64,000 bases of DNA, from assembly GCF_003334385.1 (NCBI RefSeq), contig NZ_QOWN01000006.1. One strand, written 5' to 3'. Shown piece by piece: positions 48,341-59,510 of this stretch. The DNA comes from Escherichia coli (GTDB lineage: Bacteria; Pseudomonadota; Gammaproteobacteria; Enterobacterales; Enterobacteriaceae). The position numbers were made by a program, and so were the translations under genes. Numbering within the stretch: the stretch's first letter is position 1; every line of letters starts with the position of its first letter. The notes under the pieces are model-generated. The model ran no database searches, had not been told where the DNA came from, and saw nothing but the letters and a program-made list of their open reading frames with translations.

Positions 48341-50173
48341 TCAATGTTTCAACGACCAGAAGATCTTTTCTGCCAGACCTTGCGAAATACCCGGCACTTT
48401 TGCAATTTCCTCGACGCTGGCGTTACGTAAACCTTGCAAACCGCCCATATATTTCAACAACATTTGCCGACGTTTTGGCCCGACGCCTTCAATGGTTTCC
48501 AGGGAACTGGTATTTTTGACCTTCGCCCGTTTTTTACGGTGCCCGCCAATCGCGTGATCATGTGATTCATCGCGAATATGCTGGATAACATGCAGCGCGG
48601 GTGAATCTGGCGGCAAACTAAATCCCTCACCTTCCGGCTCAAAGAACAGCGTTTCCAGTCCAGCCTTACGATCTGCTCCTTTGGCAACGCCAAGTAGCAG
48701 CGGATGATTTTTATCCCATGAGACATCCAGTTCGGCGAAGACATTTTTCGCCTGCGCAAGCTGGCCTTTGCCGCCGTCGATAAGGATCACATCCGGGATC
48801 TTACTGTCGTCAATGGCTTTACCATAACGCCGACGCAGCACCTGATTCATCGCCGCATAATCATCGCCCGGCGTGATGCCTGTAATGTTATAGCGCCGAT
48901 ACTCCGCACGCAGCGGGCCGTTAGCATCAAACACCACACAGGAAGCGACGGTTTGTTCGCCCATGGTATGGCTGATGTCAAAGCACTCCATCCGCTTCAC
49001 TTCCGGCAATTTCAACACGCTGGCAAGCGCGGTCAGTCGCTGGTGAACGGTAGATTGCTGCGAAAGTTTGCTGGTTAAGGCCGTCGCCGCATTGGTGCGC
49101 GCGAGTTTCAGATAACGCGCCCTATCGCCGCGAGGTTTGGTTTGAACATTAATCTTGCGTCCCGCCAGTTCTGAAAGGGAATCGGCGAGCAGCGTTTTAT
49201 CGCTAAGATTAAAATCGAGCAGGATCTCACCCGGTAAGGTGCGCATCTGGCTGCCTTGTAAATAGAACTGGCCTACGAAGGTTTCTACCACCTCGCTCAG
49301 TTCCGTACCGCCAGGCACTTTCGGGAAATAGCTGCGGCTGCCGAGCACTTTGCCCTGACGAATGAACAATACGTGGACACAAGCCATGCCCGCATCGAAC
49401 GCCACACCAATAACGTCGAGGTCGTCGCCGGTATTGGAAACGAATTGTTTTTCGGTGACGCGTCGCACCGCCTGAATTTGGTCGCGAATACGTGCAGCTT
49501 CTTCAAACTCCAGATTCTGGCTGGCAGTTTCCATACGACTAATGAGTTGCGTAAGCACCTGATCATCTTTGCCAGACAAAAACAGGCGCACATACTCGAC
49601 CTGCTGAGCGTATTCTTCTTCACTCACCAGTCCTTCAACGCACGGTCCCAGACAGCGCCCTATCTGGTATTGCAGACACGGACGCGAGCGATTGCGATAA
49701 ACACTATTTTCGCACTGGCGAATGGGGAAAATCTTTTGCAGTAGCGCCAGTGTTTCACGTACGGCATAGCCATTCGGGAACGGGCCGAAATATTCACCTT
49801 TGGCATGCTTCGCACCACGATGCATCGCCAGACGCGGGTGGGTATCACCACTCAGGAAGATAAAAGGATATGATTTATCATCGCGTAGCAAAACGTTGTA
49901 ACGCGGCTGATAGAGTTTGATGTAGTTGTGTTCCAGCAACAGCGCTTCGGTTTCTGTGTGAGTAACCGTTACATCAATTTGCTGGATCTGGGCGACCAGC
50001 GCTTCGGTTTTGCGCGAAGCGAGGTTGCTACGGAAATAGCTGGAAAGCCGTTTTTTCAGGTCTTTCGCTTTGCCGACATAGATAACCGTACCACCAGCAT
50101 CGTACATGCGATAAACGCCTGGCTGGCTGGTTACGGTTTTTAAAAACGCTTTTGCGTCAAACTGATCACTCAC
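48341..50173 (-). CDS. uvrC: Excinuclease ABC subunit C UvrC
   Basis: 610-aa ORF with N-terminal GIY-YIG domain ([18 protein letters not shown]). Confidence 0.97.
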
Positions 50174-50826
50174 TGACTTGATAATGTCTCCGCATTACAC
50201 AGACCATGGCGAATTGCCAGGTGAGTCAGCTCAACATCGCCATGAATGTTTAGTTTACTGAACATACGATAGCGGTAGCTGTTCACCGTTTTCGGACTGA
50301 GATTGAGCTGTTCTGAGATCTCATTGACCTTCTGGCCCTTGGTGATCATCAGCATAATCTGCAATTCACGTTCAGACAAACTGGCAAATGGGCTTTCTGT
50401 TTTTTCTGGTTCGATCTGGCTTAACGCCATTTGTTGAGCGATGTCAGAAGCAATGTAACGCTGCCCTGAATAGACAGAACGAATCGCACTCACGACTTCC
50501 TGCGGAGCCGCGCCTTTGCTGAGGTAGCCCGCAGCACCGGCCTGCATGACTTTCGCTGGTAAAGGGTTTTCTGTATGGACGGTAAGCATGATGATTTTGA
50601 CATCAGCTGTGGAACGCGCGATTTTACGCGTCGCCTCAAGACCGCCAATGCCCGGCATACTCATGTCCATTAGCACCACGTCAACGGCATTTGTCCGGCA
50701 CCACTTAACGGCGTCTTCACCGCACGATGCCTCACCGACGACTTTTATACCCTTTATATCTTCCAGAATGCGTCGTATCCCTGCGCGCACCAGTTCGTGG
50801 TCATCAACAAGTAGAACGTTGATCAA
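50170..50826 (-). CDS. uvrY: Response regulator UvrY (partner of BarA)
   Basis: 218-aa receiver plus LuxR-type HTH; stop overlaps the uvrC start by 4 nt. Confidence 0.97.
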
Positions 50827-51284
50827 AGGAATATCTCCAGAAATAGGGATAACGCTACTGATAGTTAGTCATTCGTATATTAGCGGTTTTTATTGCAACT
50901 TTGAAACGTTAAAAATGGTGGGTATTCGATTTTTCTCTCGTTTTTGTCAATTCGATTGTCCACAGTTATGGTCACGCCCGTCACCAACGGCTTACCGGAT
51001 CGTTTCACAGTAAGCCCTGCGACGAAATGTGACAAAAATTACCTTTATTCAGCAAAAATGAAAATCAGCCCGCTGAATATGTAACATTAATTAACCCGAA
51101 CAATACGGGCAAAAAACATTCATGATAAAAATATTTATTGGTCATTATATTAACGCATTTAATAGCACCGTTGACGATACGCTCAAAAAACAACCACTGC
51201 TATTTTTAGCAAAGCTTATGGTATACTCCGCCGCCTTAACATTTTTCACCGCAAATTTTCATTGCAACATGACGAGGAAAATAA

Positions 51285-51509
51285 ATGAGTACGCCTGATT
51301 TTTCTACTGCCGAGAATAATCAAGAACTGGCAAATGAAGTCTCCTGCCTGAAAGCGATGCTGACGCTGATGCTGCAGGCGATGGGACAAGCTGACGCGGG
51401 CCGCGTGATGTTAAAGATGGAAAAACAGCTTGCGCTGATCGAAGACGAAACCCAGGCTGCAGTATTTTCCAAAACGGTTAAGCAAATTAAACAAGCCTAC
51501 CGTCAGTAA
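51285..51509 (+). CDS. yecF: Uncharacterized protein YecF
   Basis: 74-aa ORF beginning [28 protein letters not shown]. Confidence 0.85.
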
Positions 51510-51512
51510 TAT

Positions 51513-51548
51513 AAAACCGGCTGATAGCGTGCCTTTCAGCCGGTTTTT
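51513..51548. terminator. Bidirectional rho-independent terminator between yecF and sdiA
   Basis: aaaaccggctga-tagcgtgccttt-tcagccggttttt. Confidence 0.75.
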
Positions 51549-51576
51549 GCATCTGGCACGCAGGACAGAAAAGAGA

Positions 51577-52299
51577 TCAAATTAAGCCAGTAGCGGCCGC
51601 GTAACAGGCAACCTGGGTCTTATTCGGTGCATTGATTTTTTTCTGCATGTTTTTCTGATGGAAATTGACCGTATTCTCAGAGATTGACAAAATCATCGCT
51701 ATCTCTGCTGATGTCTTCCCTTCCGCCGTCCATTTCAAAATTTCTTTTTCGCGCTTGCTGAAATTCATCTCTGGCGTCATCACTATTTCATCATTTAAAC
51801 GCATCAGAGCCATCAGACTTTCGCGCACCAGTAACTGCATTTTTAATTGCAGTTCATCACTAAGAATGGGTATTTCGCGCGCGCTGCTACGGGAAAAGGA
51901 CAAAAAGCCCAGCGCCCGGTTTGGCAGCATTAAATACTGAGTGACACCGCGGCGTAAACCATGTGCGCGCGCGGCTTCCCATAACGGCTGTGCTTCGCTG
52001 AATAAGTCATCATTCCACATTAAATGGCCCTGACTAAAGTTTTCAGGGTTCAGCACCGGATCAATTGCGAGAAAGTTTTTTGCCTGATAATAACTAACCC
52101 ACGCCTCAGGGTAATTGGTGTAGAAAGCCACTTTAGGTCGCGTGAATGGTACCGGGTGGCGAACACATAACGAATAGTAATCGTACTCTAGCTGCTGAGC
52201 CTGAAGCTCTATTTCATGGTAGACCTCTTCTGCGGCCTCCATCCTCTGAAAACGCAACAGCATCGTGCGACGCCAGCTGAAAAAATCCGTATCCTGCAT
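51577..52299 (-). CDS. sdiA: LuxR-family acyl-homoserine-lactone receptor SdiA
   Basis: 240 aa from ATG 52299 (MQDTDFFSWRRTMLLRFQRMEAAEEV); C-terminal LuxR HTH. Confidence 0.95.
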   Translation of the reverse strand: MQDTDFFSWRRTMLLRFQRMEAAEEVYHEIELQAQQLEYDYYSLCVRHPVPFTRPKVAFYTNYPEAWVSYYQAKNFLAIDPVLNPENFSQGHLMWNDDLFSEAQPLWEAARAHGLRRGVTQYLMLPNRALGFLSFSRSSAREIPILSDELQLKMQLLVRESLMALMRLNDEIVMTPEMNFSKREKEILKWTAEGKTSAEIAMILSISENTVNFHQKNMQKKINAPNKTQVACYAAATGLI

Positions 52300-52528
52300 A
52301 GTAAACCGCAACGCCCCTGAGAGTGAGTATCATTTATAATGATAATTCAAACTATCACATAAATAAGATTTATATATAATTTATATTATTCAGGCAATGA
52401 ATTACTTTTGCAAGCCATCGCATTCTCTTATGTTATTAATGAGTTATGCTGATTTGTTAAGCTGTTTTATCACGCTTGAAATGGCGTCCCGCCCCGACAG
52501 ATGAATCGTCGGGGCTGATTTTTTCTTA

Positions 52529-53281
52529 TTATTGCAGCAGAAACTTCTCGAGGAACTGGCGGGTGCGAGGCTGCTGGGGATCGGCAAATAACGCTTTTGC
52601 TGCCCCCTGCTCGACTATCCGCCCCTGGTCCATAAAAATCGCCCGGTCCGCAACATCCCGGGCAAAGCTCATTTCGTGCGTTACAATCACCATCGTGCGC
52701 TTTTCCTGCGCCAGCTGACGGATGGTGTTCAGGACTTCGCCCACCAGCTCTGGATCCAGCGCCGACGTTGGCTCGTCAAACAAAATCACCTCAGGACGCA
52801 TTGCCAGCGCACGTGCAATCGCAACACGTTGCTGTTGACCGCCAGACAAACGACGTGGATAGCTGGTTTCTTTACCGGCCAGCCCAACTTTCGCCAACAG
52901 CTCGCGAGCGCGCGCCGTGGCCTCTTCTTTCGGTTCGCCTTTGACGATCACCGGCCCTTCAATAATGTTTTCCAGCACCGTACGATGCGGAAACAAATTA
53001 AAGTTCTGGAAGACAAACCCGACGTGCTGACGCAACTGGCGAATCAGCGATTTTTGCTGACTTAATGAACGTGCAGTATCAATAGTGATATCGCTAACGG
53101 TGATAGTTCCCGCTTCCGGTTGTTCCAGCAGATTTATGCTGCGTAGCAACGTGGTTTTGCCGGAACCACTCGGACCGATAATTGCCACCACTTCGCCAGG
53201 CTTTACCTCAAGGTCGATACCGTGCAGCACCGTCTGACCGTGAAATTTTTTCACCAGGTTCTTAACTTCAATGGCACTCAT
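52529..53281 (-). CDS. tcyN: L-cystine ABC transporter ATP-binding protein TcyN (YecC)
   Basis: 250-aa ORF with Walker A GPSGSGKTT and ABC signature LSGGQQQR. Confidence 0.93.
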   Translation of the reverse strand: MSAIEVKNLVKKFHGQTVLHGIDLEVKPGEVVAIIGPSGSGKTTLLRSINLLEQPEAGTITVSDITIDTARSLSQQKSLIRQLRQHVGFVFQNFNLFPHRTVLENIIEGPVIVKGEPKEEATARARELLAKVGLAGKETSYPRRLSGGQQQRVAIARALAMRPEVILFDEPTSALDPELVGEVLNTIRQLAQEKRTMVIVTHEMSFARDVADRAIFMDQGRIVEQGAAKALFADPQQPRTRQFLEKFLLQ

Positions 53282-53946
53282 TTTGGTTCTCTCTCCTGGC
53301 GATTAAGTTGATTCTCAAAATGGTTCTGCAACGTCGATAATACTGTCGCCATGATCCAGTAGATGAGCGAAGCCGCCAGGTACATGGTGAACACCTCCAG
53401 CGTGCGCGAGGTAATCAACTGCGCCTGACGGAACAGCTCCGGCACCTGAATTGTCGCGGCCAGCGACGTATCTTTTACCAGGCTGATAAAGCTGTTCGAC
53501 AGCGGCGGCAACGCCACCCGCGCCGCCTGTGGCAAAATCGCGCGACGCATAGTCTGCCATGGCGTCATACCAATACTGGCAGCTGCTTCCCACTGACCTT
53601 TATCAATAGAAGAAATGGCGGCGCGCAGCGTTTCGGCAGCATAGGCGGCAGTGTTGAGCGACAGACCAATCATTGCTGACGGAATGGGATCTAATTCGAT
53701 ACCAAACTGCGGCAGGCCGTAATAGATCATAAACAGTTGTGCGATGAGCGGTGTACCACGAAAAATAGAGATATAAAAACGCGCCAGCCAGCGCACGGGC
53801 CAGATTGGCGACAGGCGCATCAGCGCGAGAATAAACCCGAGCAGTAAGCCAAAAAACATGCCGCCGATACTGAGTTGCAGCGTATACCCAGCCCCTTTCA
53901 GCAGGAACGGCAAGGAATCAATAACCAGTTGTATACTTTCTTGCAT
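53278..53946 (-). CDS. tcyL: L-cystine ABC transporter permease TcyL (YecS)
   Basis: 222-aa membrane protein; stop overlaps the tcyN start. Confidence 0.93.
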   Translation of the reverse strand: MQESIQLVIDSLPFLLKGAGYTLQLSIGGMFFGLLLGFILALMRLSPIWPVRWLARFYISIFRGTPLIAQLFMIYYGLPQFGIELDPIPSAMIGLSLNTAAYAAETLRAAISSIDKGQWEAAASIGMTPWQTMRRAILPQAARVALPPLSNSFISLVKDTSLAATIQVPELFRQAQLITSRTLEVFTMYLAASLIYWIMATVLSTLQNHFENQLNRQEREPK

Positions 53947-53960
53947 GAGCGTTCCCGGAG

Positions 53961-55852
<1,892 letters not shown>

Positions 55853-55939
55853 ATTCACCCCGAATGTTGTTATGTCTGTTTGCAGTGTAGAGCCATTGTT
55901 TGTAAACACAAAAACAACTCCGCTACATCTTATTCTTAT

Positions 55940-56491
55940 TTAATATATATCAGAAGAAGGCAGGCTGGAGGATTTCTGCACAAGTCCGGTACAGGTTTGG
56001 CGCTGATAGTGTTGATACTTCCGTAACGCGATGCGGTAATTGTTGGTGCTGGTGGTGGGCAGCCACGGGGCGAGGATTTCATCAAGGAAACCGTCCTGCA
56101 GCTGTTCGAGGGAAATATTTTGCTCGTGTAGATGATTCCCCAAACGGCGCAAACGAACGACATATTCACGCACCGTACCTGGGCTCATTTCAGTTTGCTC
56201 AAAAAGAAATTGCTTAAAGCCGATAATATCGAAAAAATCACTCTGCGTTTTGCAGTGTAAATCACCGCAAAATCGGCACAATGCCGCCCATGATTGTTGT
56301 TCCACTTGCCAGCCATTTTCATCAAGCAGCGTGTCCAGGCGGGAAATCTCGATTTTATTCACTATTTTGCCGTCGCGAACTAAGGTAATGCGATCGAGTA
56401 ATTTACGGCAATGCGCACAATGGGTCTGGCTGTGTTTAAAGTCTTTAAGATAGCGGCTTAATGGCCGTCTTTTCAGGTGCTGCACCATCAT
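55940..56491 (-). CDS. fliZ: Flagellar regulatory protein FliZ
   Basis: 183 aa from ATG 56491 (MMVQHLKRRPLSRYLKDFKHSQTHCAHCRK); downstream of fliA. Confidence 0.93.
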   Translation of the reverse strand: MMVQHLKRRPLSRYLKDFKHSQTHCAHCRKLLDRITLVRDGKIVNKIEISRLDTLLDENGWQVEQQSWAALCRFCGDLHCKTQSDFFDIIGFKQFLFEQTEMSPGTVREYVVRLRRLGNHLHEQNISLEQLQDGFLDEILAPWLPTTSTNNYRIALRKYQHYQRQTCTGLVQKSSSLPSSDIY

Positions 56492-56536
56492 TAAGAACTC
56501 CTGGTAGTCAAAGTTAAAGTGCGGCATTTACTGACG

Positions 56537-57256
56537 TTATAACTTACCCAGTTTAGTGCGTAACCGTTTAATGGCCTGGCTGTGTAACTGACTGACCCGC
56601 GATTCCCCGACCTCCAGCACCGCGCCAATCTCTTTGAGATTCAGCTCTTCCTGGTAATAGAGGGTTAATACCAGTTTTTCGCGCTCCGGCAGCGTTTCGA
56701 TAGCTTCCATCACCCGCTGGCGCAGATTACTGTCCAGCAGTTGTTGTAGCGGGTTTTCTCGCTGATGATCATCAGTAACCAGTTCGATGCTATCGCCGTG
56801 CTCTTCGCGCCACTCATCGTAGGAGAAGAGCTGGCTGTTATTGGTGTCGAGCAACATTTGGCGATAATCGGCAATATCGATCCCTAAACGTTCCGCTACC
56901 TCAGTTTCCGTGGCGTTGCGGCCAAGTTCCTGCTCCAGTTGCCCTATTGCCTGTGCCACTTCACGCGCGTTGCGTCGCACGCTGCGCGGCACCCAGTCAC
57001 GGCTGCGAAGTTCATCCAGCATAGCGCCACGGATACGCTGCACTGCGTAAGTTGTAAATGCCGTTCCTTGTAGGGCGTCATAGCGTTCGACGGCATTAAG
57101 TAACCCAATGCCGCCCGCCTGTAGCAGATCGTCAAGTTCCACGCTCGCGGGCAGTCGAACCTGCAGGCGCAATGCTTCGTGACGCACCAGCGGGACATAA
57201 CGCTGCCACAGCGAGTGTTTATCCATTACACCTTCAGCGGTATAGAGTGAATTCAC
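56537..57256 (-). CDS. fliA: Flagellar sigma factor sigma-28 FliA
   Basis: 239-aa ORF with sigma-70 region 2/4 signatures; recognised as FliA. Confidence 0.97.
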   Translation of the reverse strand: MNSLYTAEGVMDKHSLWQRYVPLVRHEALRLQVRLPASVELDDLLQAGGIGLLNAVERYDALQGTAFTTYAVQRIRGAMLDELRSRDWVPRSVRRNAREVAQAIGQLEQELGRNATETEVAERLGIDIADYRQMLLDTNNSQLFSYDEWREEHGDSIELVTDDHQRENPLQQLLDSNLRQRVMEAIETLPEREKLVLTLYYQEELNLKEIGAVLEVGESRVSQLHSQAIKRLRTKLGKL

Positions 57257-57281
57257 GATAAACAGCCCTGCGTTATATGAG

Positions 57282-57289
57282 TTATCGGC
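57282..57289 (-). promoter_or_regulatory. GCCGATAA sigma-28-type -10 element upstream of fliA
   Basis: Minus strand reads gccgataa about 25 bp upstream of the fliA ATG; no good -35 match found. Confidence 0.45.
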
Positions 57290-57379
57290 ATGATTATCCG
57301 TTTCTGCAGGGTTTTTAATCGGACGATTAGTGGGTGAAATGAGGGGTTATTTGGGGGTTACCGGTAAATTGCGGACAGA

Positions 57380-57402
57380 AAAAACCCCGCCGGTGGCGGG
57401 GA
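57380..57402 (-). terminator. Rho-independent terminator of fliC
   Basis: Minus strand: ccccgcc-accg-gcgggg hairpin followed by ttttttc. Confidence 0.8.
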
Positions 57403-57431
57403 AGCACGTTGCTGACAAATTACCATTCATG

Positions 57432-57524
<93 letters not shown>

Positions 57525-57575
57525 CATCAGGCAATTTGGCGTTGCCGTCAGTCTCAGTTAATCAGGTTAGGACGA

Positions 57576-59288
57576 TTAACCCTGCAGCAGAGACAGAACC
57601 TGCTGCGGTACCTGGTTAGCTTTTGCCAGCACGGAGTTACCTGCCTGCTGAATAATCTGCGCTTTCGACATGTTGGACACTTCGGTCGCATAGTCGGCGT
57701 CCTGAATACGGGACTGCGCTTCGGACAGGTTGGTAGTGGTGTTGTTCAGGTTGGTGACTGCGGAATCCAGACGGTTCTGCACGGCACCCAGGGAAGAACG
57801 GAATTTGTCTACGGATGCGATAGCATCGTCCAGCGCTTTCAGCGGATCCGTGGTCGCTTCAGATTTACCTGTAGCTTCAGTGGTCAGAGAGCCGTCAGCC
57901 GCTTTATACAGAGCCGCGCCGTCATCATCCAGAATATTGCCGTTAGCAAATTCGTGATAAGTTTCTGTGACAGTCTTGTTGGCCGCAGTCGTCAGTTCAC
58001 CCTCAGCACCAATATTTACGGTCGCTCCACCTGTAGTAGCAGTTACTGCACCATCAGCGGCAACGTCATAAGACTGTGCGCCGTTAGCTACGGTATAAGC
58101 CTGACCGGTTAACGCAGTGTTCATATCTTCGGCGGATACCGTCGCGCCCTTAATATCCACATTGTTGCTAACCTGGGTGAAGTCAACGGTCATGCCGCTG
58201 CCGAAGGTAATCTTCGCATCAACTGCATCATGACCATTCGCACCGTTGAAAATACCGTCCAACGTTGCCGCGGCTGGGCCGCCGGCCTGGTTTTTCGTCA
58301 GGTTACCGTCAGCACCAATGTATAAAGCATCGCCATTAGTATCCGTCAGGGTACCATCGCTGGCAATTTTAACTTCCTGAGCGCTACCACCGATGGAGAT
58401 CTGAGCCGTGTTATCGCCGTTTGCTGCATAGGCTTTCAGAACATCAGCAACTTTAGTTGAGCCCGCAGTACCATCACCATTAGTAAGTGCGGTTGCGTCA
58501 AATGAATAAGACTTGCTGGTTGCGTTGTAGGTATATGCAGTAGAAGCCGCTACGCCTAACCCATTGTTTGTGCCAGCATAACCGCTAATAGTGCTGCCGC
58601 CACTAACGCTAGCCAGCACATCGGTAGCTGTTGCTGCATTAAAGGTAGTAACAGTAGATTTAGTCCAGGTGCTATTGCCACTGACAACTGCACTTTGGGA
58701 GAAGCCCGCAGCGGTCAGATCTGCTTCAGTGGCTTTTGCATTATCAACAGCGCCTTTACCGTTGACGTTGAAGCTGGTCAGCTTCAGTGTAGAAGAGTCG
58801 ATTTTTTTCAGGTCAATCGTGATGGTTTCACCATCATTTGCGCCCACCTGAATTTTCATTGAACCGTCTTTGGACAACACATTCACGCCATTGAACTGGG
58901 TCTGACCAGATACGCGGTCAATTTCATCAAGACGAGATTTGATTTCGTCCTGGATGGAGTCCAAGTCAGAATCGGAGTTAGTACCGGTAGTGGCCTGAAC
59001 CGTCAGTTCACGGATACGCTGTAAGTTGTTGTTGATTTCGGACAGCGCGCCTTCGGTGGTCTGCGCAACGGAAATACCGTCGTTGGCGTTACGTGCAGCC
59101 TGAGTCAGGCCTTTAATGTTAGAAGTAAAACGGTTAGCAATCGCCTGACCCGCGGCGTCATCCTTCGCGCTGTTAATACGCAAGCCAGAAGACAGACGCT
59201 CGATAGAACTCGACAGCGCAGACTGGTTCTTGTTGATATTATTTTGAGTGATCAGCGAGAGGCTGTTGGTATTAATGACTTGTGCCAT
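57576..59288 (-). CDS. fliC: Flagellin FliC, 570 aa, central domain unlike the K-12 allele
   Basis: Conserved N-terminus MAQVINTNSLSLITQNNINKNQSAL and C-terminus ...QVPQQVLSLLQG; central ~300 aa rich in T/A/G/S/N/D and different from the K-12 sequence I recall. Confidence 0.96.
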   Translation of the reverse strand: MAQVINTNSLSLITQNNINKNQSALSSSIERLSSGLRINSAKDDAAGQAIANRFTSNIKGLTQAARNANDGISVAQTTEGALSEINNNLQRIRELTVQATTGTNSDSDLDSIQDEIKSRLDEIDRVSGQTQFNGVNVLSKDGSMKIQVGANDGETITIDLKKIDSSTLKLTSFNVNGKGAVDNAKATEADLTAAGFSQSAVVSGNSTWTKSTVTTFNAATATDVLASVSGGSTISGYAGTNNGLGVAASTAYTYNATSKSYSFDATALTNGDGTAGSTKVADVLKAYAANGDNTAQISIGGSAQEVKIASDGTLTDTNGDALYIGADGNLTKNQAGGPAAATLDGIFNGANGHDAVDAKITFGSGMTVDFTQVSNNVDIKGATVSAEDMNTALTGQAYTVANGAQSYDVAADGAVTATTGGATVNIGAEGELTTAANKTVTETYHEFANGNILDDDGAALYKAADGSLTTEATGKSEATTDPLKALDDAIASVDKFRSSLGAVQNRLDSAVTNLNNTTTNLSEAQSRIQDADYATEVSNMSKAQIIQQAGNSVLAKANQVPQQVLSLLQG

Positions 59289-59364
59289 GATTCGTTATCC
59301 TATATTGCAAGTCGTTGATTACGTATTGGGTTTCCACCCGTCGGCTCAATCGCCGTCAACCCTG

Positions 59365-59391
59365 TTATCGTCTGTCGTAAAACAACCTTTA
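59365..59391 (-). promoter_or_regulatory. Sigma-28 promoter of fliC
   Basis: Minus strand reads TAAAGGTT, 11-nt spacer, GACGATAA. Confidence 0.8.
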
Positions 59392-59483
59392 GAATTTTTT
59401 TCACAAACAGCCATTTTTTGTTAGTCGCCGAAATACTCTTTTCTCTGCCCCTTATTCCCGCTATTAAAAAAAACAATTAAACG

Positions 59484-59510
59484 TAAACTTTGCGCAATTC
59501 AGGCCGATAA
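59484..59510 (+). promoter_or_regulatory. Sigma-28 promoter of fliDST
   Basis: Plus strand reads TAAACTTT, 11-nt spacer, GCCGATAA, about 45 bp upstream of the fliD ATG. Confidence 0.85.

Follow-up and report, generated by a model that had tools for sequence, protein, structure and literature searches.

A fliC-H32 flagellin gene within a long diverged block of an otherwise near-K-12 Escherichia coli chromosome

We analysed a 64,000-nucleotide stretch of Escherichia coli DNA (the window) and found that the reading frame at 57576-59288 is an intact chromosomal fliC encoding a known H-antigen flagellin. With strong confidence we read it as a chromosomal fliC-H32 that would lie inside a long recombined block, about 2% diverged from K-12, on a chromosome that is otherwise nearly that of K-12. 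A preliminary description of the same DNA had recognized conserved flagellin ends around a non-K-12 surface domain, and thus a different H antigen, and this core reading is borne out by Pfam, BLASTP and segment identities. Our analysis adds to it the allele name, H32, and shows where the divergence from K-12 sets in and on what scale. The features discussed below are collected in Table 1.

Table 1. Positions of fliC, its segments, its expression signals and the diverged block in the window
Feature	Position	Strand	Basis or remark
fliC coding sequence	57576..59288	-	570 aa + stop, H32 genotype; ORF, Pfam, protein identity
Codons 1-175, conserved N-terminal D0/D1 (polymerisation and export)	58764..59288	-	Identities to H48, H6 and H30
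Codons 176-478, hypervariable surface (H-antigen) region	57855..58763	-	Identities to H48, H6 and H30 centres
Codons 479-570 + stop, conserved C-terminal D1/D0	57576..57854	-	100% aa identity to K-12 FliC
fliC sigma-28 (class 3) promoter, TAAAGGTTGTTTTACGACAGACGATAA	59365..59391	-	Matches TAAA-N15-GNCGATAA; identical to K-12
Intrinsic terminator, end of fliC transcript and 3'UTR	57385..57401	-	Strong; all-GC stem of 7 bp, then a T run
~2% diverged block carrying fliC	51019..64000	.	Left edge in the uvrY-yecU spacer; right edge beyond the window

The gene is a single open reading frame in the ORF list, running on the minus strand from an ATG at 59288 to a TAA at 57576-57578, and its 570-aa product contains the peptide quoted in the preliminary description, NGKGAVDNAKATEADLTAAGFSQSAVVSGNSTWTKST. 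Pfam placed Flagellin_N (PF00669) at aa 5-140 (E 1.4e-46) and Flagellin_C (PF00700) at aa 483-568 (E 5e-32), which identify the product as a member of the flagellin family, and the enterobacterial FliC family (PF12445) at aa 347-473 (E 2e-31). In flagellin, export and polymerisation depend on the N- and C-terminal helices (D0/D1), which build the core of the filament, and the centre of some 300 residues makes up the surface-exposed outer domains that define the H antigen. The gene order, fliA (56537-57256, minus strand), fliC and fliD (59554-60960, plus strand), is that of K-12 MG1655. The gene lies at the fliC locus, between fliA-fliZ on its own strand and the divergent fliD-fliS-fliT operon, and a search for a second flagellin gene across the window found none.

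Compared with the FliC of MG1655 (b1923), which is of type H48 and has 498 aa, the window protein is 72 residues longer. BLASTP aligned no more than its two ends, aa 1-195 at 86% identity and aa 452-570 at 80%, and there was no significant match to MG1655 FliC between aa 195 and 452 of the window protein. When the protein was compared segment by segment, aa 1-175 were 92% identical to K-12 H48 FliC and the C-terminal 92 residues (aa 479-570) were 100% identical; a local BLASTP of the window centre against the H48 centre alone returned no significant similarity (E 0.49). At the nucleotide level, identity to K-12 within codons 1-175 went from 100% at the 5' end down to 87% towards the centre, codons 479-570 and the stop were ~95% identical, and no K-12 counterpart was aligned to window DNA 57855-58832 (codons 153-478). 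These values agree with the preliminary description, which had claimed about 175 N-terminal and 100 C-terminal conserved residues flanking a non-K-12 centre of about 300 aa, and which had put the K-12 flagellin at about 498 aa. It had named near-identity to H48 over the full length as the finding that would overturn it; such identity to b1923 is absent and only the ends align, at 570 versus 498 aa, so we rejected K-12 H48 as the identity of the window flagellin. What the two genes share is the locus, the sigma-28 promoter and the conserved ends, whereas they differ in length and in the central domain. PDB 8CXM has the same length of 498 aa and may represent the K-12 H48 flagellin.

To name the allele, we compared fliC at the nucleotide level with 5,426 complete E. 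coli genomes. In 67 of them (about 1.2%), the whole gene was present at 99% identity or more, with 99.8-99.9% in the best matches listed. For the stretch 57855-58832, 67 genomes reached at least 99% identity, the two listed among them 100%, and a further 155 stood at 93%; none of the 5,426 was intermediate between these two groups. The window FliC equals that of strain MB06232 residue for residue, with one synonymous DNA change at nt 325, and is 100% identical to RefSeq WP_001507509.1, the FliC of both MB06232 and E. coli 1303. Strain 1303 is O70:H32, ST10 and phylogroup A, as typed with SerotypeFinder v1.0 (PMC5422975; PMC4384141; PMC5985307). Because the protein is identical to the FliC of this strain, which was typed in silico, we assign the window allele to fliC-H32. 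The exact protein is UniProt Q9AL29, and was found on at least 1000 contigs in a large protein collection. The preliminary description had left the H-antigen allele unidentified; its statement that the type is not that of K-12 stands, and the allele can now be given a name.

Among other types, the closest is the sister allele H30, found at the same locus in strain CT29 and in genomes named 'ST540' and 'ST38'. Its flagellin also has 570 aa and is 96% identical to the window protein, with 21 substitutions and no indel; amino-acid identity is 99.4% in codons 1-175 and 93.4% in the centre. The ~93% allele was found in the genome named 'strain ST540', and ST540 isolates have been typed as H30 both in silico and serologically (PMC9774513, PMC3893481). 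Hu and Reeves count H30 and H32 among the few pairs of H antigens that resemble each other (PMC7018530). Although this similarity and the equal lengths might suggest that the window allele is itself H30, we consider this highly improbable. The window FliC matches completely the FliC of 1303, which SerotypeFinder called uniquely H32. It differs from the allele of the ST540- and ST38-type genomes, a separate serotype, in 96 codons distributed along the entire gene (75 changes synonymous, 21 non-synonymous), and the complete genomes fall into the two separate groups described above. Because these synonymous and non-synonymous differences span the whole gene, we regard H30 and H32, judging from their sequences, as old sister alleles and not recent variants. 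In one further genome, NZ_CP109924.1, which is labelled O125ac:K+:H10, the fliC centre was 100% identical to the H30-type allele and not to H10; either a second flagellin locus is expressed in that strain, or its label and gene disagree.

The window was also compared with strain 1303 beyond the flagellin itself. The two share the 570-aa protein, the locus and an equal divergence step against K-12, and their DNA is 99.8% identical over the gene and the surrounding 25 kb. They differ at 55 nucleotides in these 25 kb, 16 of them in 57374-57654 (the fliC 3' end and 3'UTR) and 28 in 62032-63836 (amyA-yedD). In addition, tcyL is frameshifted in 1303 and intact in the window. Because the nucleotide differences are clustered, the H32 lineage may contain additional small mosaic patches.

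The central domain was also compared with flagellins of solved structure. The best matches to the window FliC were 7SQJ and 7SN7, which aligned end to end (E 6e-171). Both represent the flagellin of EPEC O127:H6, in which the D0/D1 core is sheathed by the outer domains D2, D3 and D4 (PMC8931119). The D0/D1 ends of the two proteins are 95-96% identical (96% for codons 1-175). With the ends removed, the window centre was colinear with the H6 centre over all 303 aa, at 31.9% identity and E 3e-15; about two-thirds of the central residues differ, however, and the H32 protein is 22 residues longer. A global alignment had given ~35% identity of the centre to both H6 and H48, a value that we rejected as an artefact of forcing Thr/Ala/Gly-rich sequences into alignment, and local BLASTP of the centres alone splits the two (E 3e-15 for H6 versus 0.49 for H48). 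Because the centre matches H6 along its full length and does not match H48, the H32 surface region would belong to the H6-like three-domain (D2-D3-D4) class and not to the class of K-12 H48. Flagellins of the H6, H7 and Achromobacter type carry such an outer-domain sheath. The H6 outer domains build theirs by tetramerisation, with a seam, and the H32 outer domains might do so too.

We then turned to the surroundings of the gene. Over window positions 1-51,018 there were only 14 single-base differences from MG1655 (0.03%). The first 34,745 positions held 10 mismatches, and the sole structural difference there was the lack of IS1H upstream of flhD. With so few differences in 51 kb, the source strain is thus extremely closely related to K-12 apart from the fliC block. 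The amino-acid changes found in positions 1-51,018 (K-12 to window) were YebB P194S, TorZ H605R, TorY V29A and G98D, CheA K484E and UspC H62Q. From 51,019 to the end of the window, both to the left and to the right of fliC, the number of differences from MG1655 rose to 10-25 per kb (about 2%), and in strain 1303 the step against K-12 was found at the identical place. The first cluster of differences at the block edge lies in and just upstream of yecU (51122-51298) and includes a 1-nt deletion compensated by a 1-nt insertion two bases apart; the adjoining yecF matches K-12 at 100%.

Besides fliC, 63 K-12 genes were compared, and all were present in the window. Direct translation of 61 of them showed between 0 and 4 amino-acid changes per protein and no internal stops; for the other two, yecU and fliT, the DNA alignments were gapped or partial (361/366 nt for fliT), and they were left out of the amino-acid comparison. 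The differences within the block are overwhelmingly synonymous, as in fliD, which has 26 nucleotide changes and no amino-acid change, and this is why the region looked K-12-like to a reader working at the protein level. The claim of the preliminary description that the rest of the window is K-12-like as protein therefore holds for the 61 genes, but at the nucleotide level the step at 51,019 shows that fliC is no isolated patch in a K-12 background. It had also proposed checking whether K-12 identity falls only within the fliC centre, and the flanks show that it does not.

The extent of the block was followed in MB06232, the closest complete genome (100.0%, rounded, over 25 kb). There, fliE-R, dcm, hprRS and asnT are likewise ~2% diverged from K-12, and at shiA, nac and cobUST identity to K-12 is still 97.9-98.0%, to at least cobU at K-12 position 2,065,764. 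Because the divergence persists to cobU, the block is at least 70 kb long in MB06232 and its right edge lies farther out. MB06232 also carries a yersiniabactin island at asnT, in which irp2 is interrupted by a TnAs1/tet(A) transposon.

Homologous recombination is the usual route to H-type differences among E. coli clones. Because a block of ~2% divergence sits in an otherwise near-identical clonal frame, we infer that fliC-H32 lies in a large segment that was replaced by homologous recombination in one of two lineages, that of the window or that of K-12. Serotype replacement by recombination at fliC has been well described (PMC7018530). A much smaller event, in which only the fliC centre was exchanged as an intragenic patch in a K-12 background, would account for the collapse of K-12 identity inside the centre, and H-type switching with intragenic ends within the conserved regions has been described (PMC7018530). 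However, the flanking DNA (51,019-64,000) carries 10-25 differences per kb on both sides of fliC, as against 14 in the whole of the preceding 51 kb, the step is the same in strain 1303, and the divergence extends over at least 70 kb in MB06232. The small patch is thus almost certainly not what happened, and exchange of a large block remains our reading.

We also considered which lineage was the recipient. The window lineage could hold the ancestral haplotype of the shared clonal frame, with K-12 being the recombinant that imported H48 together with its flanks. In line with this idea, the K-12 fliD-yedD haplotype was found at 99% identity or more in 379 genomes, those sampled at 100% were laboratory K-12 derivatives, and the next level was 98.9%; moreover, H48 falls in a flagellin cluster of its own (PMC7018530). 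The window haplotype of fliD-yedD is likewise restricted, however, being found at 99% or more in 178 genomes, so that neither direction is favoured by this comparison. Both haplotypes are restricted to lineages, and elsewhere in the species identities grade continuously from 97 to 99%. We regard import into K-12 as a serious possibility that falls somewhat short of an even chance.

Whatever its direction, the large-block reading raises the question of how far the exchange reached. The O-antigen region lies some 100 kb away. H32 could be the marker of one very large exchange (at least 70 kb) in a K-12-like ST10 frame that perhaps extended to the O-antigen region, a suggestion that we put forward tentatively and think rather doubtful. 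If it is true, a single large exchange switched the H and O antigens together.

Next, we examined the signals through which fliC would be expressed. Its promoter can be written as TAAA-N15-GACGATAA and conforms in sequence to a class 3 sigma-28 promoter; we take 59365-59391 to be this promoter from the established consensus. The sigma-28 pattern TAAA-N15-GNCGATAA had 3 matches in the window, compared with 0.03 expected. The region between fliC and fliD differs from K-12 at two positions only. One of them lies in the fliD sigma-28 promoter (59484-59510, plus strand), where the -10 element is GCCGATAA, a perfect consensus, compared with ACCGATAA in K-12. On the other side of the gene, K-12 annotates fliX (the FliX sRNA) at the position homologous to the window fliC 3'UTR. 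About nine positions of this region differ from K-12, and the terminator stem is kept in K-12 and in one H30 strain. An Rfam scan of 50,000-64,000 gave a single borderline match, to the sRNA ES036/CssrF at 57470-57511 on the plus strand (38.1 bits, with a threshold of 37.6). This candidate, which overlaps a REP-like palindrome in the 3'UTR and runs opposite to fliC, was taken for a repeat element rather than a gene.

Among the flagellar and chemotaxis genes of the window, flhDC, motAB, the che genes, flhBAE, fliA, fliZ and fliDS are all intact, and each differs from K-12 by 0-4 amino acids. Because the promoter is identical to that of K-12 and fliA, fliZ, fliD, fliS, fliT and flhDC appear intact, the window fliC should be expressed as a class 3 flagellar gene. 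The empty target site (CATAAATG) of the MG1655 IS1H was found at 34738-34745, and in the window the flhDC regulatory region is uninterrupted by that element.

From the gene and its setting, the source strain would be predicted to be motile and to react serologically as H32. Its motility is not to be assumed, however, because MB06232, the nearest complete genome, carries a deletion from fliF to fliM. In that genome the deletion (35294-36907 of its fetched locus, outside the window) fuses a truncated fliF to a truncated fliM, and the fusion should abolish flagella. The basal-body genes fliE-R and the flg genes of the source strain fall outside the window. It could thus be that the intact fliC is not the expressed H antigen, either since the strain is non-motile or since a second, dominant flagellin locus exists elsewhere; such alternative loci (flkA, flmA) occur in some E. 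coli (PMC5422975). We think this unlikely, given that every flagellar and chemotaxis gene inside the window is intact and almost identical to its K-12 counterpart, that no second flagellin gene occurs within the window, and that nearly all complete genomes have a single fliC-like place. H32 expressed from fliC remains our expectation for the strain.

For annotation, the results mean that the source strain is an H32 E. coli whose backbone is almost that of K-12 and which is probably related to 1303 and other ST10 strains. They also show that similarity to K-12 at the protein level masks a sharp recombination boundary at ~51 kb. The H32 allele is already known and catalogued, and its presence here is ordinary serotype variation, a textbook case of antigen-gene replacement via homologous recombination that carries little weight beyond typing and poses no new question. 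As a separate suggestion, about as doubtful as the joint exchange of H and O antigens considered above, H32 filaments may carry an H6-like outer-domain sheath affecting swimming behaviour.
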